From Deltaproteobacteria bacterium (GTDB taxonomy: Bacteria > Desulfobacterota > Desulfobacteria > Desulfobacterales > JAFDMD01), in assembly GCA_019306065.1 (NCBI GenBank), contig JAFDMF010000005.1, positions 843 through 64,842 of the forward strand: 64,000 nucleotides of DNA, in the 5' to 3' direction. Below are positions 12,546 through 43,385 of this stretch, piece after piece. Position numbers and translations under genes: made by a program. The notes below the pieces were generated by a model. That model saw only the letters and a list, made by a program, of their open reading frames with translations, was not told the origin of the DNA and made no database searches. Position 1 is the first letter of the stretch, and each line of letters starts with the position of its first letter.

Positions 12546-13676
12546 ATGTTAAATTCTCTGATAATTCGTAATTTCCGTATATTTAAAGAATTAAAAATAA
12601 ACAGGGTAAACAGGGTAAATCTATTTGTAGGCAAAAACAATTCCGGTAAAAGCTGCCTGCTTGAAGCCTTGCAAATATACGCTTCCAAAGGAAATCGCGC
12701 TGATTTATATAAGATAGTTTTATCAAGAGATGAAAATTGGGAAAGTTTGCTTGCTCGCAAACGTAAAGATTCGATCCGAAAAATTTCCGCGCTGTTAGGT
12801 TATCTTTTTAACGGATATGTTTTGCCGGATATTAACGGAAAAGCTATAGAAATAGGACCAGGCAATAGCGAAGCCGATCTTCTTAAAATACGCCATAGAG
12901 CCTTTCATATAACCGAAGATGAAGAAGGAAGAAGAATTCGAACTCCGGTAGAGCAAGAATCCACAGAAGATGATTTTATAGATATTCAAACCGCATTGGA
13001 GGTTACGCAGGGAGAAAAGAGGCTTTATTATATTCCATTAGAATATAATAGATATATTTCTTCTATGAGGAGAATAGTAGAATTTAATAATACCAATTTT
13101 CAAGTGGCGCCTGCGCGGCAGATCAACGATTCAGATATCTCGGCTTTATGGGATAATATAAACTGAACCGATTTGGCACAGGAGATAGTTTCCGCTTTAA
13201 AAATTATTGATCCTAATATATCGGCGGTCGCTCTTATTGGAGATATTTCCAACGATAGATTCAGCAGTGGAAAAAACAAACGAATTCCTATTATCCGTTA
13301 TAAAGGCATAAAAGAAAGAATACCTTTAAAAACAATGGGAGACGGTTTGCTCCGTCTTTTTCATGTTATTTTGGCTCTTGTAAATGCGAAAGACGGACTT
13401 TTATTAATAGATGAATTTGAAAACGGACTCTATTGGGCGCTTCATCCGAAATTATGGGATATTATATTAAGATTATCTCATCAATTAAATGTTCAGGTTA
13501 TAGCTACCACTCATAGCCGAGACTGTATAAAAGGCTTTTATGAAGTTTGGAAAAATAAAAAAGAGGACGCCTCTTTTTACAGGTTAGAAGCAGACGCCGA
13601 AACCGGAGCAAAAGTTATTAATTACACGTATGATATGCTTTCTGATGCAATTGAAACCGATATTGAGGTTCGATAA
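12546..13676 (+). pseudogene. AAA/ABC-type ATPase (AAA_21 / COG1106-like) interrupted by one in-frame TGA
   Basis: ORFs 12546-13166 and 13173-13676 share one frame and are separated only by TGA at 13164-13166 (WDNIN*TDLAQE). Walker A is GKNNSGKS in the first part; Walker B LLLIDEFENGL and H-loop ATTHS are in the second. Confidence 0.8.
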
Positions 13677-13743: not shown

Positions 13744-15129
13744 ATGATACGCGAACATTGCGGAATATTTGGCATTGCGGAAAATCCGAATGCCGCAAAT
13801 AATACATATCTCGGATTATACGCTCTTCAGCACAGAGGCGAAGAAAGCGCCGGAATTGCTGTCGCGCATAATGGCGAAATAAAATTATATAAAGGATTAG
13901 GGCTTGTAGCAGACGTTTTTAACATAAAAAAAACGGATAAAATATCCGGCGCAAGCGCAATAGGACATGTTCGATATTCTACCGCAGGAAACACAACCCT
14001 TTCAAACGCCCAACCGATTATAGCTCATTACAAAAATCAAACATTTGCCATAGCCCATAACGGCAATATAGTAAATGCCCATATATTAAAAAAACAGCTT
14101 ATAAGGCAAGGAATTAAGTTTGAAACAACATCGGATAGCGAAGTTTTTTTAAAACTTCTTATAAAAAATTTAAAATACGGTTTTGAAGAGGCGGTAAAAA
14201 AAAGCGCGGAAATCATAAAAGGGGCTTTTTCGATAATAATACTTACAAACAAAGGAGAAATAGCGGCAATAAAGGATCCTAACGGCTTTAGACCTCTTTG
14301 TTTGGGAAAAATAGAAAAAAATTATATTCTTGCCTCCGAAACCTGCGCATTAGATATAAACGGCGCCGAATTTATAAAAGAACTTGATCCAGGCGAAATA
14401 GTTATTATCCGTAATGATAAAATAAAAAGCATAAAAAATAAAAAAGATAAAAGAAGCTTTTGTATATTTGAATATATATATTTTGCCAGACCGGACAGCA
14501 TAATGTTCAATAAAACCGTTTATAAAGTCCGAAAAAATTTTGGTAAAAAACTTGCTGCAGAATCTTCTGCAAAAGCCGATATGGTTATTCCTTTACCGGA
14601 TTCCGGAAATTATGCCGCATTAGGTTATTCTCAAGCAACAGGCATACCTTTTGAACTCGGCATAATTAAAAATCAATACATAGGCAGAACCTTTATACAG
14701 CCGGAGCAGATAATCCGAGAAATCGGAGTAAAAATAAAATTAAATCCCGTTAAAGAAATATTAAAAAACAAAAATATAGTAATAGTTGACGATTCTATTG
14801 TTCGAGGTTCTACTATAAAGATGATAGCAAAAATTTTAAGAAAAACCGGCATTCAAAAAATTCATTTAAAGATAGCAAGCCCCGCTCATAAATATCCATG
14901 CCCTTACGGAATAGATTTTTCGGATAAAAAGGAACTTTTTGCCGCAGATAAAACCGTTGAAGAGATGAAGGATATTTTTAAAGTCGATTCGCTTTCTTAT
15001 CTAAGTATTTCGGGGTTATTGGAAGCTACGGGTATAAGGAAGCCGGAAATTTTTTTTTGCAAGGCATGTTTTGACGGCGTATATCCGGTAGATTTCGATA
15101 TTAATGCAGATAAAAACTTTTGCGTTTAA
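13744..15129 (+). CDS. purF: Amidophosphoribosyltransferase
   Basis: 461 aa. Nucleophile context MIREHCGIFGI, RGEESAGIA, the PRPP-binding loop VIVDDSIVRGST and C-terminal Cys ligands. Confidence 0.95.
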   Translation: MIREHCGIFGIAENPNAANNTYLGLYALQHRGEESAGIAVAHNGEIKLYKGLGLVADVFNIKKTDKISGASAIGHVRYSTAGNTTLSNAQPIIAHYKNQTFAIAHNGNIVNAHILKKQLIRQGIKFETTSDSEVFLKLLIKNLKYGFEEAVKKSAEIIKGAFSIIILTNKGEIAAIKDPNGFRPLCLGKIEKNYILASETCALDINGAEFIKELDPGEIVIIRNDKIKSIKNKKDKRSFCIFEYIYFARPDSIMFNKTVYKVRKNFGKKLAAESSAKADMVIPLPDSGNYAALGYSQATGIPFELGIIKNQYIGRTFIQPEQIIREIGVKIKLNPVKEILKNKNIVIVDDSIVRGSTIKMIAKILRKTGIQKIHLKIASPAHKYPCPYGIDFSDKKELFAADKTVEEMKDIFKVDSLSYLSISGLLEATGIRKPEIFFCKACFDGVYPVDFDINADKNFCV

Positions 15130-15268
15130 ATTGCCCGAATTATGATTTGTCTGATTAAAGGAGCGTATATATATTGGAATATGTAAAAGGCGGTAGATAG
15201 GTTGCAATGCAATAATATTAGGTTTATAATCAACCAATTTTAAAAAACATTTGAAAGGATGGGGCGCA

Positions 15269-16675
15269 ATGCAAGGAAAATTGACTCGTTTTCGTATAGA
15301 AGGATTGCATAATATCCGCACTATAGATATGTCGATTACTGATAATAAATTGGTATTGGTTGGAGAAAACGGCATAGGGAAAAGCACGGTAGCCAATTTT
15401 ATTTATTTTTTCTTAACTATGCAATGGTCAAGAATGCTTGATTATAAATTTAAAAGCGTTTCGGCGGAGATAGACTCAATAAATTATAATTTAAGCAGAG
15501 ACGACGTAAATAAGCTTGCGAGAAAACAAAATTTTATTAATGAAAGATATGGACGTCGCTTGCCTATATCAATATATAACAAAGTTAAAGAATTAGTTGA
15601 AAGAAAATATAATGATAATAAGATAATGGGGCTAATTTCGGACGAATTCGGCGTTCCTCGCACCATATTAAGACGAGAGATTGAAAATATAAGATTTAGC
15701 AACTCGATTTCCAAAGAATTAAAAAAAGATATAGAATCGGTCAAAACTAAAATAGGAAATAAGGTAATATATCTTCCTACTTATAGAAGAATTGAACAGG
15801 ATTTGGAGATTATTTTGCCGAAATTAGAGATAGGAATAAGAGATTTTGAAGAATACCCAAAAAGGCGTAAAAATACGGGATATACCGAGCTGGTGGAATT
15901 CGGGATGGAAGATGTTGAAGAGACTATACATCGTAAAATGATAGAGATAAAAGAGACAATACGAAAAGATTTGAGCGCGTTAACAGGGGATTATCTTAGA
16001 GATGTTATTAAGGGGGCTTATCAATCTATAGATATTGCTAAATTTAACGAGGTTAACGAATTCTTAATTGCAGATATATTCAAAAGAATCCCGGAAGATA
16101 TTCTACCGCAAGAGGATCAGGAACTTTTAAATAAAATTATTTCCGAAATAAATGAATCAAAAACAATTAACGACAATAATAAAGTTATAGCTCACTTTCT
16201 TACGAAATTGGCAAAGCTCTATCAAAAGCAACAAAATGATGAGCGCGATATACGAGAATTCATAGAAATTTGTAATAAAGGGTATTTGTCCGACAAACGT
16301 TTTATATATGATGATCAGAATTTTAATATTGTAATTCGAGATATTCTTATAAAATCAGGCGTTTTGGAACTGCCTCTTAAAGCGTTATCTTCAGGCGAAA
16401 AGCAGATTGTATCTTTATTTTCTCATCTTTATTTATCTGGCAAATCCGGCTTTTTTCTTATTATTGACGAGCCGGAATTATCGCTTTCCGTGCCTTGGCA
16501 GAAACAATTTTTACCGGATATTCTAAAAAGATGTAACGGATTAATAGCGGTTACTCACTCGCCGTTTATTTATGATAATGAATTGCGACCTTATGCGCAT
16601 TCGTTGGAAGAGTTTATTAAACCTTACGAATATGACCCTGATTTAGAAGAATGGGATGAAACTGCTATAATTTAG
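15269..16675 (+). CDS. ABC/SMC-like P-loop ATPase with a long helical insert (COG3950-like, defence-type)
   Basis: Walker A VGENGIGKST, C-terminal signature LSSGEKQ, Walker B FFLIIDEPELSLS and H-loop AVTHSP. I prefer ATG 15269 (AAAGGA 9 nt upstream) over TTG 15251. Confidence 0.8.
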   Translation: MQGKLTRFRIEGLHNIRTIDMSITDNKLVLVGENGIGKSTVANFIYFFLTMQWSRMLDYKFKSVSAEIDSINYNLSRDDVNKLARKQNFINERYGRRLPISIYNKVKELVERKYNDNKIMGLISDEFGVPRTILRREIENIRFSNSISKELKKDIESVKTKIGNKVIYLPTYRRIEQDLEIILPKLEIGIRDFEEYPKRRKNTGYTELVEFGMEDVEETIHRKMIEIKETIRKDLSALTGDYLRDVIKGAYQSIDIAKFNEVNEFLIADIFKRIPEDILPQEDQELLNKIISEINESKTINDNNKVIAHFLTKLAKLYQKQQNDERDIREFIEICNKGYLSDKRFIYDDQNFNIVIRDILIKSGVLELPLKALSSGEKQIVSLFSHLYLSGKSGFFLIIDEPELSLSVPWQKQFLPDILKRCNGLIAVTHSPFIYDNELRPYAHSLEEFIKPYEYDPDLEEWDETAII

Positions 16676-16686
16676 GAGGCGTTTTT

Positions 16687-17235
16687 ATGTCATATATAAA
16701 TACTCTAAACAGAGCGGCTAAAAGTCCCACAACCGATTTTCATCTTTTAATAACTCAACATCCGTTCCAACGGAATAAATATTATGATTTTTTTACAGAT
16801 GAGGCTGTTTCGGATATTCTTTTAAAAATGGAGCGGCTTGACGATCAGAATTCAAACCTTGAAAAAAAATATACGAATAATTGGGAAAAATCTGTTAGCA
16901 TACTCCCCGAAGAAGAGATGGATCATAAACAATGGAGTGAAAATAATTATTTATGGTCAAAATATCATGAAGATTATTATAAAAAGTTAGAGAAAGTTAA
17001 GCTTACCCTTGTAGATAATGTGGGAATATCGGGAACAAAAAAGTTGGCAATGGAACAAGAGCCTATTGAACAAGAGTTTGTTAAGGAAAATTCGGCTGAT
17101 AAACCTTCTGAAAAAAACGGAATAAATTTTCTTATGTCAATAGCGGGAATGTTTGATTCCGGCGATAAAAATGGCTCGAAAAATATTAAATCCGTCGTAT
17201 CTGAATCCATCTTAAAAAAGTATGGAAAAAAATAA
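16687..17235 (+). CDS. Hypothetical 182-aa protein; possible adaptor or antitoxin for the downstream PIN
   Basis: AGGAGG precedes the ATG. The stop lies 2 nt before the PIN start. I recognise no domain motif, and the C-terminal tail is acidic then basic. Confidence 0.5.
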   Translation: MSYINTLNRAAKSPTTDFHLLITQHPFQRNKYYDFFTDEAVSDILLKMERLDDQNSNLEKKYTNNWEKSVSILPEEEMDHKQWSENNYLWSKYHEDYYKKLEKVKLTLVDNVGISGTKKLAMEQEPIEQEFVKENSADKPSEKNGINFLMSIAGMFDSGDKNGSKNIKSVVSESILKKYGKK

Positions 17236-17237
17236 AA

Positions 17238-17657
17238 ATGGCTTTTATAATTGATACCGGATTCCTATATGCCGCGCTTGATAAAAAAGATAAAAATCAT
17301 AAAAATGTTATCAAATTATTACCGATTTTGCCGAAAAGCGATTTAATACTGCCTACTCTTGTATTGGTAGAAATTACGTATCTTTTACAAAAAAGATTAG
17401 GGCATAAAAAAATGCGACAATTTATATCTACGCTTGACAACTCCCCTATCAAATTTGAAAATATTACTCAAGACGATATTCATAGAATATATGAACTGTT
17501 AAATCAATATTCGAATATAAAATTGGATTTTGTAGATGCATCTATTACGGCTATAGCGGAACGTTTGAATATCAAACAAATTTTAACGGTAGATAAAAGG
17601 GATTTCAATATAATTTGTCCTATCCACTGCAAGCATTTTGAAATACTTCCGCAATAA
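17238..17657 (+). CDS. vapC: PIN-domain ribonuclease (VapC-like toxin)
   Basis: 139 aa. N-terminal FIIDTGFLYA (first acidic residue), EITYLL and LDFVDASITAIAE are typical of PIN. Confidence 0.85.
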   Translation: MAFIIDTGFLYAALDKKDKNHKNVIKLLPILPKSDLILPTLVLVEITYLLQKRLGHKKMRQFISTLDNSPIKFENITQDDIHRIYELLNQYSNIKLDFVDASITAIAERLNIKQILTVDKRDFNIICPIHCKHFEILPQ

Positions 17658-17734: not shown

Positions 17735-18730
17735 ATGAAAAAAACAGTATCATTTTCAAAAAAGGCTTCTAATATATTTTTTCATATATTAACAGACTGC
17801 AATCTTAAATGCGCTCATTGTTATATAAATAAAAAGGAACACGGTCAAGGAAAATTACCCGTAGAAACAATAAAATTATGGCTTAGTGTTTTTGCAAAAA
17901 GAAATCCAAAAAAAAAGAATCTTATATTTTTGGGAGGAGAACCCACCTTACATCCCGACCTTTCCGAAGCAGTAAAAGAGGCAAAAAGATTAAATTACGA
18001 ATCCATAACCGTAGATACAAACGGTTATCTTTTTTTTGATATACTTTCAAAAGTAACGCCGGAACAGGTAGATTATTTCAGTTTCAGCATAGACGGCTCA
18101 AATACGAAATTAAACGATAAAATAAGAGGCAAAGGCTCTTATGAAAAGGTTATCGAAGGCATAAAAAAAGCAAAGGCAAAAGGTTTTAAAACAAGTATGA
18201 TATATACGGTATCTTCTTATAATATAGAAGATATTAAAAATATGCCTGATATTTTAAAAGATATAATGCCGGATAAATTTTTTATTCAAATCATAGGAAT
18301 AAGAGGCAAACCCGCGGCAAGCGCGAATAACTTTCAGGTAAATAACAGTCAATGGTTTTGCGCTATTCCGAATACCGCAAAAAAGATAGCAGAACTCGGA
18401 ATAAGCGTAATATATCCGAAAGTATATCTTAAAAAAGAGGAGCCTTTTGAATGCGCCGGATTATTGGCGGATAATTATTTTATATTTCCTAACGGAAGGG
18501 TTTACAAATGCCCTTTATGCGAAGACTTTGCTATAAACGGACTTTATTTTAATAAAAACAACAAGCTGGTAAAAAACGGTAAAATAAACGAAGACGACCT
18601 TTTTAATCTGTCAATACCGGAAGGCTGCGTAATCAATAAGATCGTTCAGTCGGATAATATAGAGTATAATAAAGACGGCAAGCCATTATATAAAATTGCG
18701 TGTTGTATGCTAAAGGAAGAAATATCATAG
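17735..18730 (+). CDS. Radical SAM protein with a Cys-rich (SPASM-like) C-terminus
   Basis: CNLKCAHCY is the CxxxCxxC cluster motif. GGEPTL is present. C-terminal Cys residues occur in YKCPLCED and IACCM. Confidence 0.85.
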   Translation: MKKTVSFSKKASNIFFHILTDCNLKCAHCYINKKEHGQGKLPVETIKLWLSVFAKRNPKKKNLIFLGGEPTLHPDLSEAVKEAKRLNYESITVDTNGYLFFDILSKVTPEQVDYFSFSIDGSNTKLNDKIRGKGSYEKVIEGIKKAKAKGFKTSMIYTVSSYNIEDIKNMPDILKDIMPDKFFIQIIGIRGKPAASANNFQVNNSQWFCAIPNTAKKIAELGISVIYPKVYLKKEEPFECAGLLADNYFIFPNGRVYKCPLCEDFAINGLYFNKNNKLVKNGKINEDDLFNLSIPEGCVINKIVQSDNIEYNKDGKPLYKIACCMLKEEIS

Positions 18731-18905: not shown

Positions 18906-19973
18906 ATGTTTCGTAATTTTAAAGTTGTTCCGCAAATAATATTCGGAAAAGGCTCTTTTGCTCAATTAGACGATATATTAAGCAATAGGCGTAAGCATCA
19001 AAAATCGTTTATGGTATTTTTAATAGATCATGCTTTTGAAAATACAAATTTTAAATCCCGCGTTCCTTTAAAAAAAGATGATATGTTAATATGGATAAAT
19101 ACCGATACCGAACCTAAAACCTATTATATAGACCGGCTTGTAGAAGAAATAAAAAAACATAAAAATATTCTTCCCGATGGAATAATAGGAATAGGGGGCG
19201 GGGCTACAATGGATATTTCAAAAGCCGTATCTTTAATGCTTACAAATCCTGGAAGTTCAGCGGATTATCAGGGCTGGGATCTTATAAAAAATTCCGCGGT
19301 ATATCATGTAGGAATACCAACCCTTTCCGGAACCGGAGCGGAAGCCTCAAGAACCGCAATATTAACCGGACCCGAAAAAAAATTGGGGATAAACTCCGAT
19401 TATACCGTATTTGATCAAATAGTATTAGATCCGGAACTTACCGAAGGCGCGCCTGCAGATCAGCGTTTTTATACGGGAATGGATTGTTACATCCATTGCG
19501 TAGAAGCATTAACAGGAACATATTTAAACACATTTTCCAAAGCCTACGGCGAAAAAGCAATGGAGCTTTGCCAAAACGTATTTTTAAACAATGCAAAAAA
19601 TGCCGCAGACGAACTTATGATAGCCTCATATTTCGGAGGAATGAGCATAGCATATTCGCAAGTAGGGGTATGCCATGCTTTATCTTACGGACTTTCTTTC
19701 GGGCTTGGAATAAGACACGGCATAGGAAACTGCATAGCCTTTGATTATCTTGAAGAGTTTTATCCCGAAGGTGTTGCGGAATTTAGAAAAATGCAAGAAA
19801 TTGCAAAAATAGAACTTCCTCGCGGCATTACAAAAAATATAGATAATAATATACTTGCAAAAATGATAACCGTTGCTTTAGGGTTAGAGCCGTTATGGGA
19901 AAATGCTTTGGGAAAAGATTGGAAAAAGATAATGCCGAAAGAAAGAATAAAAGAATTATATCTTAAGATGTAA
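18906..19973 (+). CDS. Iron-containing (group III) alcohol dehydrogenase family protein
   Basis: 355 aa. The GIGGGATMDISKA nucleotide loop and His-rich metal site (YIHCVEAL, VCHALSYGL) are present. Confidence 0.85.
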   Translation: MFRNFKVVPQIIFGKGSFAQLDDILSNRRKHQKSFMVFLIDHAFENTNFKSRVPLKKDDMLIWINTDTEPKTYYIDRLVEEIKKHKNILPDGIIGIGGGATMDISKAVSLMLTNPGSSADYQGWDLIKNSAVYHVGIPTLSGTGAEASRTAILTGPEKKLGINSDYTVFDQIVLDPELTEGAPADQRFYTGMDCYIHCVEALTGTYLNTFSKAYGEKAMELCQNVFLNNAKNAADELMIASYFGGMSIAYSQVGVCHALSYGLSFGLGIRHGIGNCIAFDYLEEFYPEGVAEFRKMQEIAKIELPRGITKNIDNNILAKMITVALGLEPLWENALGKDWKKIMPKERIKELYLKM

Positions 19974-22420: not shown

Positions 22421-25400
22421 ATGTGCGGAATAGCCGGAATAATACCGTTTAAAAAAATAAAAAATAAAAAATTAAATATAAATAAATTAAACGATTATAT
22501 TGATAGAATTAAAGAGACGGTTGAAGATTTGTCCGTAACCCGGCCGAATATAACAAATTATTTGGGAGGCAAAAAACTACTTAATTCCTTTTTAATAAAA
22601 ACCGGAGAATTGAAACTTCAAAACCAATTTTACGCTCTTTATACAGACGGCGCAGAGATAAAAAAAATAGAAAAAATCGCAGAACAACTTGATAACATAA
22701 TAACATCTCAAACAAATTTTTTTTTAAAAAAAGATTTCGGCTTTGCAAAAAAAGATGCGGAAAAAATATATTCGGCTCTTTTTAAATTAAAAGATATTAG
22801 ATGGGCTTTAACATCGGAACTTATAGATAATATAAATAAAGTAAAAAAGCTTATAACCTATAATAATAATCCGACTTCAATACAGGTTGCCGCATTTAAA
22901 AATATCAACACGGTTTTAAACTCAATAGACAGGCTTGAAGTCCGAGGCAGAGATTCTGCCGGAATATCCGTTATATTTACATACAATAAAAAAAAGTTTA
23001 AAAAATTTCAACTTCTTTTAACCTCGGAAGAAAAAAAACAATTAAATAAACGAACCGAAACAAAACAGCTTTTAAACGGCTCAATAAACGCAAATACCTC
23101 TTCCGATAATAAGACCTCCATAACATTTACCTACAAAATAGCCGCGGAAGTAGGAAAACTCGGAGACAACGTAAAATTTTTGCGCAAAGAGATAATCAAA
23201 GATAATATATTACAAAAAGCTGGCGCGGTTCAATATCTGTACAACAGTATAATATCCCATACAAGATGGGCGTCTGTAGGCGGCATAAACGAATTCAACT
23301 GCCATCCTATAGACTTATACCTTACCGATACAAAAAATAAAAATCAAAATATTAACGTATGCTTAAACGGCGATATAGACAACTATATCCGATTAAAAAC
23401 CGAGTTTGAAAACAACGGCGAAAAAATAGACTCCGATACAAAAATAATACCCCTTTTAATAAAAAAATATCTTAAAAAAACATCCGATATAAAAGAGGCT
23501 TTTCGGCTTGCGGTAAATAATTTTAAAGGCTCTCATGCAATAGCAATGCACACCGATCTTGCCCCCGGAAAAATATTTTTGGCTCAAAAAGGCAGCGGAC
23601 AGGCTCTTTTTATAGGCATAGCGGACGAGCATTACATACCTGCATCCGAAGTTTACGGCTTTGTGGAGGATACCCGGTATTTTATAAAAATAAACTGCGA
23701 ACAGAGTCAAAAAATAAAAAACAAAGAGATAGAAGGGCAGATATTTATACTTGATTCTGACAAAGGAGGAAAATTAAACGGTATAACGGCATCATATTAT
23801 GACGGAGAAAAAATAAAGCTTAATGAAAAATTTATAAAACAGACCGAAATAACCTCAAGAGATATAGACAGAAGAGATTATGCCCATTACTTTTTAAAAG
23901 AAATATCCGAATCTCCGGCATCCGTAGAAAAAACCCTGTTAAACCGATTAAAAACGGATAAACAACAAAAACGAGTAACTTTGGATAAAAAAGCCTTTCC
24001 GCAGACTTTGAAAAAAGCCTTTTTAAAAAATAAAATAAAAAAAATATATTTTGTAGGGCAGGGAACGGCAGGAGTGGCAGCAGTATGCGGAGCAAACATA
24101 CTTCGATATTATCTAAGCAAAGCCTCAATACAAATAAGGGCGGTAAAAGCTTCGGAACTCTCTGGCTTTATACTGTTTGAAAACGACGATAAAGAAAGCT
24201 TAAAAGACACATTAGTAGTTGCGGTAACCCAGTCCGGCACAACAACAGATACAAACAAAACCGTTGATATGGCAAAAGAAAGAGGCGGGTGGACAATTGC
24301 CATAGTAAATAGAAGAGATTCCGATATTACCTTTAAAACAGACGGGGTTTTATATACAAGCAGCGGCAGAGATATAGAAATGTCCGTAGCATCTACAAAA
24401 GCTTTTTATTCGCAGGTTGCCGCCGCCGCTTTACTAGGGCTTTGCATAACATCTGCAGTTGGCATAAGAGAAGAAAAGTTTATCCGAAAAGAGATAAAAA
24501 GACTTATAGAAATACCAAATTCTATGCGTAAAATACTGGCGACAAAAGATAAAATAAAAAAATCCGCAGAAAAATTCGCGCTTTTTAAAACCTACTGGGC
24601 TGTTGTGGGAAGCGGTGCAAACAAGCCGGCGGCAGACGAAATAAGAATAAAACTTTCGGAATTATGCTATAAAACAATATCTTCCGATTACATAGAGGAT
24701 AAAAAACATATAGACCTTTCCGCCGAACCGCTAATAATAGTATGCGCTGCAAGTGCGAGAGAAAACGTAATACAAGATATAGTAAAAGATACCGCAATAT
24801 TTAAAGCTCATAAAGCCACTCCTATAGTAATAACGGATGAAAAAGAACATAGATTCGACGCATATGCGGAAGATGTTTTTTACATACCTACGGTAAGCCA
24901 GCACTTTGCGCCCATATTAAATACCCTTGCCGGGCATTTGTGGGGTTATTTTGCCGCCCTTGCAATAAACGGCGTATCCGAATATCTGTATCAATTTAAA
25001 GAGGATATAAAAAATACAGTAGATAATTTTGTAAAACAAGGGTTAGACATATACGAAATTGTGCAAAAAGAGGAATTCAAAGAAAAAATCACGCTTTTTT
25101 CAATAGATTTCAAACAAAAAAAAGCGGACAAACAATTCCCTTCCATAATAGGATTTAAAACAGCATCCGATCTTACCCTCCTTTTAAAATATCTGTCCGG
25201 CAAGTTAGACGTATCAGATTTTACCTTTGATTTCGATATAGAATACAGCGCGTTAAATATGCTTCAACTTCTACTTAAAAGATTAAACGGCGCTATAAAC
25301 AGATTATCCAGACCAATAGATGCGATAAGACATCAGGCTAAAACCGTCACCGTGGGCACAAGCAGAATCAGTGATAAAATAGAAGGCGTAATATTTGAAG

Positions 25401-25972
25401 AAATAGAAAAACTCGGTATAAAACTATATGGAATTACAGCTAAAAACATACTTGTATTAAAAAACCTGCAAAAAATCATATCCGGCATAAGAGGCTACAT
25501 ACTTTATAAAATAGACGGGTTAAACATAAACGGCAAACCTTGCGACGCTTCTACCATAACCGTTTTGGAAAAAGGCGGAGCGCTTTTTATGCTGCCTTCC
25601 CGCGTAGAAAAAGACAGCAGATTACGAGGAACCAAAAAAACCATAGTGGAGCGGGAAAACGTTTATATAGCAAAAGCAAGATTAGACGGCAGAAACATAA
25701 TAATAATACCGATAATATCTACAAATCCTCAAATTCCGAATAAAATAGAATATCTGCTTTTATTCAACATTACATTTAAAGAAGAGGTTCCGTTAGAGGT
25801 AAAAATAAAAGCATTAGGTCCGAAATTTCAGTTTATAAAAAACATAGTTCAAGAAAGCGTAAATGATTGGAAAGACGAATATATCAATATGGTTCCTATG
25901 TATGACCTATTCGGAAAAACAGCCGAAAAAACAGGGGAGCTTATTATATCAATCATTTCTATGATGAAATAG
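22421..25972 (+). CDS. Giant GlmS-like protein: class II glutamine amidotransferase plus two SIS domains, with large insertions and a C-terminal extension
   Basis: 1183 aa. N-terminal nucleophile MCGIAGI. GATase-II blocks RLEVRGRDSAGI, HTRWASVGG..NCHP and CLNGDIDNY. SIS blocks VGQGTAG / VTQSGTTTDT and VGSGANKPAADEIRIKLSE. Confidence 0.8.
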   Translation: MCGIAGIIPFKKIKNKKLNINKLNDYIDRIKETVEDLSVTRPNITNYLGGKKLLNSFLIKTGELKLQNQFYALYTDGAEIKKIEKIAEQLDNIITSQTNFFLKKDFGFAKKDAEKIYSALFKLKDIRWALTSELIDNINKVKKLITYNNNPTSIQVAAFKNINTVLNSIDRLEVRGRDSAGISVIFTYNKKKFKKFQLLLTSEEKKQLNKRTETKQLLNGSINANTSSDNKTSITFTYKIAAEVGKLGDNVKFLRKEIIKDNILQKAGAVQYLYNSIISHTRWASVGGINEFNCHPIDLYLTDTKNKNQNINVCLNGDIDNYIRLKTEFENNGEKIDSDTKIIPLLIKKYLKKTSDIKEAFRLAVNNFKGSHAIAMHTDLAPGKIFLAQKGSGQALFIGIADEHYIPASEVYGFVEDTRYFIKINCEQSQKIKNKEIEGQIFILDSDKGGKLNGITASYYDGEKIKLNEKFIKQTEITSRDIDRRDYAHYFLKEISESPASVEKTLLNRLKTDKQQKRVTLDKKAFPQTLKKAFLKNKIKKIYFVGQGTAGVAAVCGANILRYYLSKASIQIRAVKASELSGFILFENDDKESLKDTLVVAVTQSGTTTDTNKTVDMAKERGGWTIAIVNRRDSDITFKTDGVLYTSSGRDIEMSVASTKAFYSQVAAAALLGLCITSAVGIREEKFIRKEIKRLIEIPNSMRKILATKDKIKKSAEKFALFKTYWAVVGSGANKPAADEIRIKLSELCYKTISSDYIEDKKHIDLSAEPLIIVCAASARENVIQDIVKDTAIFKAHKATPIVITDEKEHRFDAYAEDVFYIPTVSQHFAPILNTLAGHLWGYFAALAINGVSEYLYQFKEDIKNTVDNFVKQGLDIYEIVQKEEFKEKITLFSIDFKQKKADKQFPSIIGFKTASDLTLLLKYLSGKLDVSDFTFDFDIEYSALNMLQLLLKRLNGAINRLSRPIDAIRHQAKTVTVGTSRISDKIEGVIFEEIEKLGIKLYGITAKNILVLKNLQKIISGIRGYILYKIDGLNINGKPCDASTITVLEKGGALFMLPSRVEKDSRLRGTKKTIVERENVYIAKARLDGRNIIIIPIISTNPQIPNKIEYLLLFNITFKEEVPLEVKIKALGPKFQFIKNIVQESVNDWKDEYINMVPMYDLFGKTAEKTGELIISIISMMK

Positions 25973-30383: not shown

Positions 30384-31517
30384 ATGTCAAAAATAGACCA
30401 ACTTATAAAAAAAGGGGTAAAAATAGCAGCGCCTTGCTCCATAGAAATAGGAGACGAGGTAAATATTGATGACATATCAGGCGAAGGGGTAACCTTATAT
30501 GCGGGAGTAAAAATTTTCGGAGAGTCTACCGTTATTTTAAAAAACTGCTCCATAGGCTACGAAGCTCCCGTTACCATAGATAACTGCCAGATCGGAGTTA
30601 ATGTAAAACTTGCAGGAGGCTATTTTAACAATGCGGTTTTTTTAAAAAAAGCAAGCGCTGGATCCTGCGCTCATGTAAGAGAGGCAACAATATTGGAAGA
30701 GGAAGCAAGCATAGCCCATACAGTAGGGCTTAAACATACCATACTTTTTCCTTATGTAGCCCTCGGAAGCCTTATAAATTTTTGCGACTGTCTTATGACT
30801 GGCGGCGCAAGCATAAAAAATCATAGCGAAGTTGGGAGTTCATTTATACATTTTAATTATACTCCAGCTCAGGATAAAGCTACCCCTTCGATATTCGGAG
30901 ATGTTTTTAATGGAGTGATGCTTAATAAAAATCCTATATTTCTCGGGGGGCAAGGCGGAGTTGTAGGACCCTGCCGATTGGCTTTCGGAACCGTTACTCC
31001 CGCCGGAACAATATGCAGAAAAGACGAATATGTAGAAAACAGACTCGTTATAAATGTAGGAGCCGAAAAAACGGTTTCAATACCATACAAGAAAAAAATA
31101 TTCGGAGACGTTAAAAGAATTATTACAAATAATGTTAATTATTTGGCAAATTTAACTGCTCTTTACGTCTGGTATAAAAACATCAGGGCAAACTTTATAT
31201 CTCAAGAATTTACAAAGCAAATATTATCTGGGCTGCTTCAAAAAACGGACATGGCAATATCCGAGCGAATCAAAAGATTTAAAGAATTTTTGAATAATGC
31301 AAATTTTTTTTATGATATTGCAGAATTAGAAGATATAATATCAGAAAAAAAAAAGACTGCGGCAGATATAAAATATTACGAGCCTTTTTTGAAAACAATA
31401 GAACAAAACATTACAGCTTACGGAAAAGATTATATAAAGGTAATAAAAAATTTAAACGAAGAGCAGCGTCAAGCCGGAATCTTATGGCTTAATAGAGTAA
31501 TTCGGGATATATTGTAG
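30384..31517 (+). CDS. Left-handed beta-helix (hexapeptide-repeat, GlmU C-terminal-like) protein with a helical C-terminal domain
   Basis: The N-terminal 230 aa show an imperfect hexapeptide periodicity (VTLYAGVKIFGESTVI, VTIDNCQIGVNVKL and others). Function is unknown. Confidence 0.55.
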   Translation: MSKIDQLIKKGVKIAAPCSIEIGDEVNIDDISGEGVTLYAGVKIFGESTVILKNCSIGYEAPVTIDNCQIGVNVKLAGGYFNNAVFLKKASAGSCAHVREATILEEEASIAHTVGLKHTILFPYVALGSLINFCDCLMTGGASIKNHSEVGSSFIHFNYTPAQDKATPSIFGDVFNGVMLNKNPIFLGGQGGVVGPCRLAFGTVTPAGTICRKDEYVENRLVINVGAEKTVSIPYKKKIFGDVKRIITNNVNYLANLTALYVWYKNIRANFISQEFTKQILSGLLQKTDMAISERIKRFKEFLNNANFFYDIAELEDIISEKKKTAADIKYYEPFLKTIEQNITAYGKDYIKVIKNLNEEQRQAGILWLNRVIRDIL

Positions 31518-37230: not shown

Positions 37231-37384
37231 TTAAAACTCAAAACCGTTATATAATAAAGGATAATTATAAAGTAATAAAGATACAGAGTAATATCAGACA
37301 AAAAAAATGATAAAAGTCGGCAGGATAACAAAGTGCAAATTACAAAGTTAGACGGTAAACTTTAAACAAAGAAAGTTAAACCAA

Positions 37385-38473
37385 ATGCAATTTATAGATT
37401 TAAAAACCCAATATAAACAGCTTCAAGAAAAAATAGATAAAAACATAAAAAAAGTATTAGATCACAGCCAATTTATAATGGGGGCCGAGGTAAAAATACT
37501 CGAAGAAAAACTTGCCGAATACATAGAAGTAAAACACTGCATTACAGTGTCCAGCGGAACAGACGCTTTGCTTGCCGCGCTTATGGCGCTTAACATTAAA
37601 AAAGGCGACCAAGTAATTACAACCCCGTTCAGCTTCATCGCAACTGCAGAAAGCATAATTCTAACAGGAGCGGAACCTGTTTTTACAGATATAAATCCGC
37701 TTACCTACAACATAGAGCCAAATCTGATAGAAAAAGCAATAACTTCCGAAACAAAAGCGCTAATGCCCGTATCGTTATACGGACAATGCGCGGATATGGA
37801 CGCCATCAACAACATAGCGGCAAAGTACAACATCCCCATAATAGAAGATGCCGCCCAAAGCTTCGGAGCGGAATATAAAAATAAAAAATCATGCGGATTA
37901 ACTCTTATCGGCTGCACAAGCTTCTTCCCTTCAAAACCGCTTGGATGCTACGGAGACGGAGGAGCATGCTTTACAAATGACGATACAATTGCCAAGAAAC
38001 TAAAAGAAATAAGAGATCACGGGCAAAACGGACGTTATAATCACATACGAATAGGAATAAACGGAAGATTAGACACATTACAAGCGGCAATACTTCTTGC
38101 AAAATTGGAAACATTTGATACGGAAGTAAAAGCAAGAGAACAAATCGGCGCAAGATATACCAGACTTTTAAACAATATAAAAGCAATTACCGCCCCGCAT
38201 ATCCAACCCCACAATAAAAGCGTATATGCTCAATATACAATACAGATTGATAACAGAGACAGTTTTGCGGAAAAACTCAAACAAAAAAATATTCCTACTG
38301 CGGTTCATTATCCCATCCCCCTTAACATGCAGCCCGCAATAGATCAGACAAATAAAAAATTTCCTATTGCAGAAACCGTAGCAAAACGAGTAATAAGTTT
38401 GCCAATGCATCCGTTTTTAAGCAAAAAGGAACAGGATATAATAGTAAATGCGATTATAGAGGCTATCAGTTAA
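37385..38473 (+). CDS. DegT/DnrJ/EryC1/StrS-family sugar aminotransferase
   Basis: 362 aa. The SSGTDALL motif, DAAQSFGA and the PLP-Lys region FFPSKPLGCYGDGGA are present. Confidence 0.9.
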   Translation: MQFIDLKTQYKQLQEKIDKNIKKVLDHSQFIMGAEVKILEEKLAEYIEVKHCITVSSGTDALLAALMALNIKKGDQVITTPFSFIATAESIILTGAEPVFTDINPLTYNIEPNLIEKAITSETKALMPVSLYGQCADMDAINNIAAKYNIPIIEDAAQSFGAEYKNKKSCGLTLIGCTSFFPSKPLGCYGDGGACFTNDDTIAKKLKEIRDHGQNGRYNHIRIGINGRLDTLQAAILLAKLETFDTEVKAREQIGARYTRLLNNIKAITAPHIQPHNKSVYAQYTIQIDNRDSFAEKLKQKNIPTAVHYPIPLNMQPAIDQTNKKFPIAETVAKRVISLPMHPFLSKKEQDIIVNAIIEAIS

Positions 38474-41244: not shown

Positions 41245-42231
41245 ATGTTTGACGACAAAACAATATTAATAACCGGAGGCACAGGCTCCTTCGGAAGAAA
41301 ATGCACCCAAACAATCCTAAAACGCTACAAACCGAAAAAACTAATCATATTCAGCCGAGACGAACTAAAACAATTTGAAATGGCTCAAACATTTTCCGCC
41401 GATAAATATTCCTGCATAAGATACTTCATAGGAGACGTTCGAGACAAAGAACGCCTTTACCGAGCATTCTATAACGTAGACTACGTAATCCACGCGGCGG
41501 CATTAAAACAAGTTCCGGCAGCGGAATACAACCCCTTTGAAGCCGTAAAAACAAACATAATAGGCGCTCAAAACATAATAAACGTAGCAATAGATCAAAA
41601 AGTAAAAAAAGTTATAGCCCTAAGCACAGACAAAGCGGTTAATCCGATAAATCTATACGGGGCTACAAAATTATGCTCCGACAAACTATTTGTAAGCGCA
41701 AACGTTTATGTAGGAAAAGAACATACGATATTTTCGGTAGTCCGATACGGAAACGTAGTAGGAAGCAGAGGCAGCGTCATACCTTTTTTTATAAAGAAAA
41801 AAAATACTGGAACACTTCCCATTACAGATCCTCGTATGACACGCTTTTGGATTACGTTAAAACAAGGAGTGAATTTTGTTATCGAACGCTTCGAGCGAAT
41901 GGTAGGCGGCGAAATATTCGTTCCGAAAATACCCAGTATGAACATAATGGATCTGGCAAAAGCAATATCTCCGGAAGCAAAAACCGAAATAACAGGCATA
42001 AGACCCGGAGAAAAACTTGATGAAGTAATGATTTCAAAAGACGATTCCAGACACACCGTAGAATTTGACGACTACTACATAATAATGCCCGTTTTTCATT
42101 TTTTTGAAAAAAGATTCAACAACAAAAACAACAACTGCAAACCTGTTGAAGAAGGCTTCGAATACAACTCCGGCACAAACAAACAATGGCTTACGGTAGA
42201 ACAACTACAAGAAATGATAAAACAAATATGA
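41245..42231 (+). CDS. pseB: UDP-N-acetylglucosamine 4,6-dehydratase (inverting), PseB/FlaA1-type
   Basis: MFDDKTILITGGTGSFGRK..., the YGATKLCSDKL catalytic YxxxK, and polysaccharide-biosynthesis (CapD-like) short-chain dehydratase features. The ORF track starts 27 nt earlier, at 41218. Confidence 0.9.
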   Translation: MFDDKTILITGGTGSFGRKCTQTILKRYKPKKLIIFSRDELKQFEMAQTFSADKYSCIRYFIGDVRDKERLYRAFYNVDYVIHAAALKQVPAAEYNPFEAVKTNIIGAQNIINVAIDQKVKKVIALSTDKAVNPINLYGATKLCSDKLFVSANVYVGKEHTIFSVVRYGNVVGSRGSVIPFFIKKKNTGTLPITDPRMTRFWITLKQGVNFVIERFERMVGGEIFVPKIPSMNIMDLAKAISPEAKTEITGIRPGEKLDEVMISKDDSRHTVEFDDYYIIMPVFHFFEKRFNNKNNNCKPVEEGFEYNSGTNKQWLTVEQLQEMIKQI

Positions 42232-43385
42232 TCCCTTACGGAAAACAAAACATCTGCAAACAGGATATAGAAAAAGTTATCCAAATCCTCAATTCTAACA
42301 ACCTTACCCAAGGTCCTACCGTGTTAAAATTCGAACAGGCTTTGGCAAAACATTGCAAAGCAAAATATGCGGTTGCGGTTTCAAGCGGAACCGCCGCCTT
42401 ACATCTTGCTTATCTTGCCGCCGGCATCGGCAAAAACGATGCAATATGGACAACTCCCAATACATTTGCGGCAACGGCAAACGCCGCGCTTTACTGCGGG
42501 GCAAAACCCAATTTTATAGATATAAATCCCAACACCTACAACATATCCGTTGAAAAATTAGAAGAAAAACTTATACAAGCGGCAAAAAATAACAGCCTGC
42601 CACAAGCGGTTATCCCCGTTCATTTTGCAGGGCAGGCATGCGAAATGAAAAAAATAGCTCGGCTATCCCGCAAATACGGCTTTACAATAATAGAAGACGC
42701 CTCGCATGCCATAGGAACAAAATATAACGACGGCAAATATATAGGAGACTGCAAATATTCGAATATTACTACATTTTCTTTCCATCCCGTAAAAACAATA
42801 ACCACCGGAGAAGGCGGAGCCGCGCTTACAAACAATAAAAAAATATATAAAAAACTTCTAACGCTGCGCTCTCATGGAATTGTAAAAAACAGCAAAATGG
42901 CGGAAAAATACGGGCTATGGTATTATCAAATGCAACATCTCGGTTTCAATTACAGAATAACCGACATACAAGCAGCATTAGGGATTTCCCAGTTAAACAA
43001 ATTAAACAATTTTGTAGAAAAAAGAAAAAAAATCGTCCGGCAATACAACAACGCCTTCAAAAACATACCACACCTTACAATCCCCTACGAAAAAGAAAAA
43101 AAAAACACATCTTTTCATCTATATGTATTACAAATAGATTTTAAAAAAATAAAAAAAAGCCGAAAAACAGTAATGGAAAAACTATCTGCCCGAAACATAG
43201 CAACCCAAGTTCATTACATCCCCGTTTATAGGCATCCTTATTATAAAAAAAAGTTCGGATACAACTATAAAAACTATCCCGCAACCGAAAACTATTATAA
43301 AAAAGCGTTAAGCATACCCTTATATCCGGCAATGACAAACTCGCAAGTAGAGTATGTAATAGAAAAAATAACCGCTTTGTTTTAA
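42228..43385 (+). CDS. pseC: UDP-4-amino-4,6-dideoxy-N-acetyl-beta-L-altrosamine transaminase-like (DegT family), PseC-type
   Basis: MIPYGKQNICKQDIEKVIQIL is the typical PseC N-terminus. SSGTAALHLA, DASHAIG and SFHPVKTITTGEGG are present. The ATGA overlaps the pseB stop. Confidence 0.85.
   Translation: MIPYGKQNICKQDIEKVIQILNSNNLTQGPTVLKFEQALAKHCKAKYAVAVSSGTAALHLAYLAAGIGKNDAIWTTPNTFAATANAALYCGAKPNFIDINPNTYNISVEKLEEKLIQAAKNNSLPQAVIPVHFAGQACEMKKIARLSRKYGFTIIEDASHAIGTKYNDGKYIGDCKYSNITTFSFHPVKTITTGEGGAALTNNKKIYKKLLTLRSHGIVKNSKMAEKYGLWYYQMQHLGFNYRITDIQAALGISQLNKLNNFVEKRKKIVRQYNNAFKNIPHLTIPYEKEKKNTSFHLYVLQIDFKKIKKSRKTVMEKLSARNIATQVHYIPVYRHPYYKKKFGYNYKNYPATENYYKKALSIPLYPAMTNSQVEYVIEKITALF

Follow-up and report, generated by a model that had tools for sequence, protein, structure and literature searches.

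Is a protein that bears the hallmarks of glucosamine-6-phosphate synthase (GlmS) at roughly twice the usual length a working enzyme, and what might its additional parts do? The question is raised by a gene in a 64,000-nucleotide stretch of a Deltaproteobacteria bacterium genome (contig JAFDMF010000005.1, positions 843 to 64,842; the whole stretch is called the window below, and coordinates refer to it). The gene is a complete open reading frame (ORF) at 22421..25972 on the + strand, as given by the ORF list and its translation; it encodes 1183 amino acids (aa) followed by a stop codon, compared to 608 aa for E. coli GlmS, that is, 575 extra residues. A first-pass annotation, made from the letters of the DNA, had described the product as a GlmS-like amidotransferase/SIS protein of about double the canonical size, and this size ratio holds. 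Our analysis indicates that the protein is probably a functional GlmS (EC 2.6.1.16) of a long-form subfamily, whose extra modules most likely act as allosteric or assembly elements. The enzyme chemistry is known; what is new is the widespread, uncharacterised, double-size architecture.

Catalytic core and internal C-tail

Pfam places SIS domains in two stretches of the protein (E 4.4e-19), and GATase_6 (31.9 bits) and GATase_7 (31.0 bits) at residues 276-411, both over their cutoffs; with its GATase_6/7 fold and N-terminal Cys, the protein is a class II (N-terminal nucleophile, Ntn; PurF-type) amidotransferase. Two GlmS models are by far its best NCBIfam matches (285 and 267 bits), and residues 57-590 of E. 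coli GlmS (PDB 1jxa) align to residues 267-848 of the long form. The blocks on which the first-pass annotation was built are all located where it had put them: MCGIAGI at residues 1-7, RLEVRGRDSAGI at residues 171-182 (164 residues on), and the two SIS-like blocks, VTQSGTTTDT at residues 602-611 and GSGANKPAADEIRIKLSE at residues 730-747.

Residues 1-10 (22421..22450, + strand, as are all features of the gene given below) comprise the Met, the nucleophile Cys2, and strand 1 of the Ntn glutaminase domain (MCGIAGI). The class II/Ntn glutaminase core continues at residues 161-480 (22901..23860), with the glutamine-site residues R175, R282, W283, H295, N316, G317, and D339, which are invariant in 41 aligned homologs. 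The first SIS subdomain (residues 481-680; 23861..24460) contains the phosphate loop T603-Q-S-G-T-T608 and the segment V656-A-S658-T-K; the second (residues 681-850; 24461..24970) contains K744, E747, and H763, the counterparts of E. coli GlmS K485, E488, and H504. Conserved SIS residues of the long form are T549, Q604, S605, T608, V656, S658, K744, E747, and H763.

We compared the protein to E. coli GlmS in a global alignment with cheap gap extension (575 columns, 31% identity), using 23 E. coli positions of known function in GlmS. Nineteen of the 23 are identical (E. coli numbering): C1, R26, R73, W74, H86, N98, G99, and D123 in the glutaminase site; T302, Q348, S349, T352, V399, and S401 in the sugar-phosphate site; the isomerase catalytic residues K485, E488, and H504; and A602 and K603 of the lid. 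The other four are conservative differences (T76S, H77V, S303A, and S347T, from E. coli GlmS to the long form). The 19 identical residues are invariant or at least 90% conserved across the 41 aligned homologs, and most of them remain so in members that share 34-43% identity with the long form in the window.

The predicted structure gives the same picture. The full-length AlphaFold model has a mean predicted local distance difference test (pLDDT) of 74 and a predicted template modelling (TM) score of 0.71; in a Foldseek search, its best PDB match was the closed, ligand-bound E. coli GlmS (2j6h; E 8.5e-23, TM 0.71 on the target), and human GFAT1 (PDB 6r4e and others) was matched as well, with TM 0.63-0.69. 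Pfam, the best NCBIfam matches, the 19 of 23 functional residues, and the TM score of 0.71 thus agree on the GlmS-like amidotransferase/SIS identity. The first-pass annotation had also suggested a ketose-phosphate aminating enzyme; the GlmS core bears this out, and we refine the substrate to most likely fructose-6-phosphate (Fru-6-P), because the sugar-phosphate site is conserved and because the gene forms a glmM-GlmS operon in one distant member (see below). Judged from its residues, the protein appears equipped for glutamine-dependent amination and isomerisation of Fru-6-P.

The start of the frame is consistent with this. The ATG is the first start codon past an in-frame stop, and the nucleophile Cys stands directly behind the initiator Met, as expected of a GlmS. 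Upstream, an aldehyde dehydrogenase gene runs up to 22324, and the 96-nt AT-rich spacer between the two genes leaves no room for a leader.

The tail was the part of the protein in which the first-pass annotation saw about 350 residues with no recognisable motif. The length is about right, since the 1jxa alignment stops at query residue 848 and about 335 residues follow this canonical end; but the tail does hold the GlmS C-terminal lid motif, RPIDAIRHQAKTVTVGTSR, at residues 964-982 (25310..25366), as indicated by alignment, motif scan, and AlphaFold. Its K974 corresponds to the Schiff-base Lys603 of E. coli GlmS and is invariant across the family, and the motif is conserved at 97%. The E. coli GlmS lid motif, DQPRNLAKSVTVE, finds its best ungapped 13-mer match at residues 967-979 with a score of 27 (runner-up, 13), a score attained by 247 of 20,000 shuffles (1.2%); the global alignment sets E. 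coli GlmS residues 595-609 on residues 965-979. A 41-residue peptide around the motif did not retrieve GlmS from the PDB, being too short. In all solved GlmS/GFAT chains the lid motif makes up the final residues, whereas in the long form about 200 residues follow it, so the motif is present but internal. Both AlphaFold models assign it a pLDDT below 50, which predicts a flexible segment.

The gene is not confined to the window. An exact copy of the 1183-aa protein is on record (P0001, on a 128.9-kb contig), and among 5.8 billion proteins searched there were more than 100 homologs of 1148-1296 aa, with 99-100% query coverage and 53-86% identity; these full-length homologs stem from many independent assemblies, one of them a 5.57-Mb complete genome. 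Identity of 53-86% along the entire protein in so many homologs shows that the blocks are no chance pattern; the 41 aligned homologs have a mean column identity of 67%. We also searched with the tail alone (the last 334 residues, 850-1183) against 1.84 billion cluster representatives at the 50% identity level, and found 323 clusters at E <= 0.001. All complete tail-bearing members are 1100-1260 aa long, with the tail match always C-terminal, and the short tail matches that we looked up are fragments on contigs of 1.5-1.7 kb.

A genome scan, with one genome per species, gave at least 591 confirmed stretches, and our statements on it cover the best 80 of these. All 80 are full length, and nearly all come from Desulfobacterales or from unclassified Thermodesulfobacteriota/proteobacterial metagenome-assembled genomes; genera among them include Desulfosarcina, Desulfonema, Desulfatibacillum, Desulfobacula, Desulfatitalea, and Desulfosalsimonas, and one member is the isolate Desulfamplus magnetovallimortis. 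Distant members (34-43% identity) are found in Planctomycetota, Candidatus Xenobia, and other bacteria, and keep all of the extra elements. We take the long-form GlmS to be a distinct, vertically inherited subfamily. An assembly fusion of two genes, a possibility that the first-pass annotation had raised against its own proposal, is ruled out by the homolog search, the cluster-representative search, and the genome scan, which together place full-length homologs in independent assemblies, complete genomes, and an isolate.

Extra modules and a pro-sequence in relatives

The large insertion that had been proposed inside the glutaminase domain proved to be a helical bundle of about 150 aa past strand 1 (insertion 1, residues 11-160; 22451..22900), delimited by AlphaFold and conservation. 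It sits between the nucleophile-bearing first strand and the first canonical helix of the glutaminase domain. In the model, five helices lie within residues 22-144, and a sixth (153-175) continues into the core; pLDDT is mostly 74-93, with loops at about 56-62. D125 and W128 of this insertion are invariant, even in members at 34% identity. A second, smaller insertion is found in the glutaminase core at about residues 190-232.

AlphaFold predicts a helical domain of about 110 aa (residues 851-963; 24971..25309; pLDDT of about 66-91) that separates the C-tail motif from the isomerase domain. The C-tail motif is in turn followed by a C-terminal alpha/beta domain of about 200 aa (residues 983-1183; 25367..25969), recognised from AlphaFold, Foldseek, and conservation. 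Along the chain it consists of two helices, two strands, helices, three strands, and terminal helices, with an antiparallel sheet, and its pLDDT is about 65-94. It contains a conserved SR(V)E...L.GTK motif (S1060, R1061, G1070, K1072), and polar residues in the helices that lie between the strands, S1060, R1061, G1070, K1072, D1089, and E1145, are invariant down to 34% identity. Column identity in the extra domains is 51-76%. The AlphaFold models, which the first-pass annotation had suggested as a check, thus predict the insertion and the tail as discrete folded domains.

Neither the insertion nor the tail gave anything significant against Pfam and NCBIfam. A profile of the tail matched no PDB sequence, and a profile of the insertion matched coiled-coil noise alone. 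Likewise, Foldseek of the tail against the PDB returned no match at E <= 0.001; the weak, non-significant matches (E 0.014-0.6, TM 0.15-0.4, probability at most 0.84) are mostly PAS, LOV, GAF, and Cache domains, and among those named are KinD, LOV, a formate Cache domain, and GAF. The C-terminal domain resembles such PAS/GAF/Cache sensors in its two strands, helices, and three strands forming an antiparallel sheet, and it is matched by none of the PAS, GAF, or Cache models of Pfam and by no PDB profile.

Most relatives differ from the protein in the window at the other end of the chain. In 64 of the 68 related loci with a locatable nucleophile Cys, at least 42 codons ahead of this Cys are free of in-frame stops. 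The sequence ahead of the Cys is conserved, with the consensus ...YFG[KR]...VP..[ST][ILV][VI][FL]FP......C|CG in the 65 loci used for a codon test; the conserved stretch is at least 27 aa long and has Pro at position -8 in 63 of the 65. In these loci, the third codon position is saturated at the conserved residues while the first two are fixed, so the upstream stretch is translated. The protein in the window and its three closest relatives start with Met-Cys and have no pro-sequence; their clade has lost it.

An Ntn amidotransferase requires a free Cys amino terminus, and B. subtilis PurF is made as a precursor from which a pro-peptide is removed. Given this requirement, and by analogy with PurF, the relatives with a pro-sequence should be precursors that are processed. 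We found no description of pro-sequence processing of GlmS in the literature. The window also encodes a second class II amidotransferase (13744-15129, + strand), which by eye is PurF-like; it begins MIREHCGIFGI, and the five residues ahead of its nucleophile Cys would, again by eye, make up a short pro-peptide like that of B. subtilis PurF.

Genomic context

The long GlmS gene of Desulfobacterales belongs to a conserved block of housekeeping genes with surE/lptD, a nusG-like gene, the HU gene, holB, PSP1, metG, and long GlmS, with pyrG and eno downstream. We examined 87 loci, and where the flank suffices, the commonest order is holB-PSP1-metG-[kdsB or kdnA-kdnB or nothing]-GlmS. The kdsB gene between metG and long GlmS scores 304 bits (cutoff, 193), and the pair found at the same place in other loci consists of orthologs of KdnA (560 bits, PDB 5k8b) and KdnB (491 bits, PDB 5k8c), the enzyme pair that synthesises the lipopolysaccharide (LPS) sugar Kdo8N.

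The window lacks the holB-metG synteny and has retained kdnB. This gene encodes a 355-aa protein of the Fe-ADH family (3-deoxy-D-manno-octulosonate 8-oxidase; 18906..19973, + strand), which matches PDB 5k8c over its full length with 491 bits; it lies 2.4 kb upstream of the long-form GlmS, and is also upstream of it in related genomes. The KdnB ortholog suggests that the host makes Kdo8N. No close KdnA ortholog was found within the window; the KdnA-related ORFs there are DegT-type aminotransferases (37352-38470 and 42150-43382) with 36-38% identity to KdnA. The aldehyde dehydrogenase and methyltransferase genes between kdnB and GlmS in the window are not upstream of GlmS in a close relative (L006), and have no ORF match in the 87 loci.

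A different arrangement is seen in a distant, high-GC member (P0239, on a 2.55-Mb contig; locus L088, 6661-11794), where the order is rplM-rpsI-glmM-long GlmS-acpS...alr. Here glmM overlaps the start of long GlmS by one base, and the two genes are translationally coupled. The slot after glmM is the place of canonical glmS in many Gram-positive genomes, and this gene order is the strongest sign from context that the family provides glucosamine-6-phosphate (GlcN-6-P). The surroundings of the gene in the other distant members examined gave no further clue. Overall, the conserved context supports a housekeeping role in the supply of cell-envelope precursors.

No second GlmS was found within the 64-kb window. 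An Rfam scan of the whole window gave no family at the gathering score, and thus no glmS ribozyme in the 5′ leader; a promoter/terminator scan around the long-form GlmS gene gave a number of sites not above that in shuffled sequence.

Several other genes of the window were noted. A 377-aa left-handed beta-helix protein (30384-31517, + strand) resembles GlmU weakly, in the acetyltransferase half (46 bits, far under the cutoff), and is without the uridylyltransferase half. Just upstream of kdnB there is a 331-aa radical SAM protein (17735-18730, + strand) whose matches are all generic, the best being viperin-like, NirJ-like, and MoaA-like at about 75 bits, all below cutoff. Between this gene and purF lies an AAA_21/AAA_15 ATPase of the AbiEii/OLD-like type (15251-16675, + strand), followed by a 182-aa ORF (16687-17235) and then by a 139-aa ORF (17238-17657) that by eye is like a PIN-domain toxin; the ORFs at 15251-17657 could form a small islet of the defence or toxin-antitoxin type. 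Two further ORFs (12546-13166 and 13173-13676) resemble, by eye, a split AbiEii/OLD-like ATPase.

Possible mechanism, alternatives, and known systems

Residue conservation and gene context together make GlmS activity likely for the long form. In the mechanism that we propose, removal of the Met would allow Cys2 to hydrolyse glutamine, and the ammonia would be channelled to the two-SIS isomerase domain; Fru-6-P, held there by the conserved phosphate loop, would be converted to GlcN-6-P with the participation of K974, E747, and H763. The extra modules (residues 11-160, 851-963, and 983-1183) would most likely be allosteric or assembly elements integral to the enzyme. Once canonical GlmS has bound sugar phosphate, its C-tail closes over the ligand and completes the ammonia channel. 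In the long form, an extra domain anchors the lid motif on each side, so that shifts of these domains could open or close both the isomerase site and the ammonia channel. A possible trigger would be a phosphorylated metabolite that binds the conserved SR...GTK patch; an effector with a phosphate group would fit such a patch in a PAS/GAF-like fold.

Of the regulatory or scaffold domains in the first-pass annotation, the domains themselves are predicted as discrete folds by AlphaFold, while their regulatory role is something that we infer. Control of the enzyme by a ligand through these modules is conceivable, and we would put its chances at somewhat below even. A more specific version is tentative: the long form could be a self-regulating gate of the hexosamine pathway, in which the PAS/GAF-like domain binds a metabolite of the pathway, such as uridine diphosphate N-acetylglucosamine (UDP-GlcNAc) or GlcN-6-P, and gates the isomerase site and the channel via the K974 lid, in place of control by RNA or a partner, with the pro-sequence adding a zymogen-like step in most members.

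A number of observations weigh against the assignment as a GlmS with sensor-like modules. The NCBIfam scores are below the curated cutoffs (NF001484, 285 vs. 381 bits; TIGR01135, 267 vs. 418 bits); the phosphate ligand S303 is replaced by Ala, and H77 by Val; AlphaFold confidence is low at residues 731-767, which include the catalytic loop, and at the C-tail motif; of seven distant contexts that we examined, only one has glmM next to the gene; the PAS/GAF-like assignment is based on Foldseek matches short of significance (best E 0.014); and NCBI labels members of the family "SIS domain-containing protein", compared to JGI, which names them GlmS. For the enzyme, the main rival explanation is a specialised paralog that acts on another ketose phosphate or makes an LPS or polysaccharide amino sugar, for example one linked to Kdo8N, with a separate canonical GlmS for housekeeping. 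The position of kdnB 2.4 kb upstream, the kdnA-kdnB or kdsB genes directly upstream in many relatives, the scores under the GlmS equivalog cutoffs, and the Ala at S303 would all fit such a paralog; but KdnA already performs the Kdo8N amination (PDB 5k8b carries the name of the transaminase), kdn and kdsB neighbours are missing in many relatives, the other Fru-6-P ligands and the catalytic residues are conserved, the P0239 gene stands directly behind glmM, and the position in the housekeeping block is kept across the order. We therefore regard a specialised paralog as improbable.

For the modules, the main rival is a structural role: the protein would be an ordinary GlmS whose additions serve purely as a scaffold for oligomerisation or stability, or for partner docking, with no ligand sensing. 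Insertion 1 and residues 851-963 are all-helical, like generic helical bundles or coiled coils, no sensor family is recognised by sequence, and the PAS/GAF matches are non-significant, as this explanation would have it; however, the invariant S1060, R1061, G1070, K1072, D1089, and E1145 point to a binding site and not to packing alone, and the tethering of the catalytic lid between two extra domains is an arrangement suited to control. A purely structural role is thus an alternative that we take seriously and consider rather unlikely. As for the gene being an artefact (a fusion from assembly or gene calling, or a decaying pseudo-enzyme), the double canonical length and the low-confidence model regions at 731-767 and 964-986 could be read that way, but the identical architecture recurs in hundreds of independent assemblies, complete genomes, and one isolate, the reading frame is single and uninterrupted, and the catalytic residues are invariant or nearly so family-wide. 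In addition, the C-tail motif lies past the first extra domain, which argues that the extra parts were inserted within one gene and not appended to it. An artefact is, in our judgement, vanishingly improbable, and the long form is best read as a functional GlmS with probable allosteric or assembly modules.

As the enzyme of the first reaction on the way to UDP-GlcNAc, a precursor of peptidoglycan and lipid A, GlmS controls entry into the synthesis of the cell wall and LPS, and it is both a classic model of ammonia channelling and an antimicrobial target. Bacterial GlmS is known to be controlled by RNA (the glmS ribozyme, GlmY/GlmZ) or by partner proteins. A double-size form as widespread as this would speak for protein-intrinsic control in Desulfobacterales, one of the main groups of marine sulfate reducers, as well as in several further phyla; the features that bear on such control are the internal catalytic lid, the two helical modules, the possible sensor domain, and the pro-sequence in most members. 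The label "SIS domain-containing protein" also means that metabolic reconstructions may wrongly report GlmS as absent. We found no description of the long GlmS form or of its extra modules in the literature, supplements included; nor did we find a Pfam, NCBIfam, or PDB family or a paper for the extra regions that would make the protein a known, characterised GlmS-family subtype, as the first-pass annotation had allowed it might be.

Among known systems, B. subtilis PurF and the large subunit of glutamate synthase are similar to most long-form relatives in having translated sequence ahead of the nucleophile Cys; they are, however, other enzymes, and the protein in the window starts with Met-Cys and needs no processing. 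The closest comparison is E. coli GlmS (1jxa, 2j6h; TIGR01135), with which the long form shares the Ntn glutaminase with N-terminal Cys, the two SIS subdomains, the predicted interdomain arrangement, and a C-tail motif with AK[ST]VTV. It departs from GlmS in three features, namely the curated score cutoffs, the terminal lid, and the length: E. coli GlmS has 608 aa and a terminal lid, whereas the long form has 1183 aa and an internal one, and adds a 150-aa helical insertion, a 110-aa helical domain, and a 200-aa alpha/beta domain. Eukaryotic GFAT1/2, a GlmS enlarged by lineage-specific regulatory insertions, provides a precedent; GFAT is feedback-inhibited by UDP-GlcNAc and has a phosphorylated loop in the glutaminase domain. 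Unlike the long form, GFAT is about 680 aa long, has its insertion elsewhere in the glutaminase domain, keeps the C-tail terminal, and has no extra C-terminal domain.

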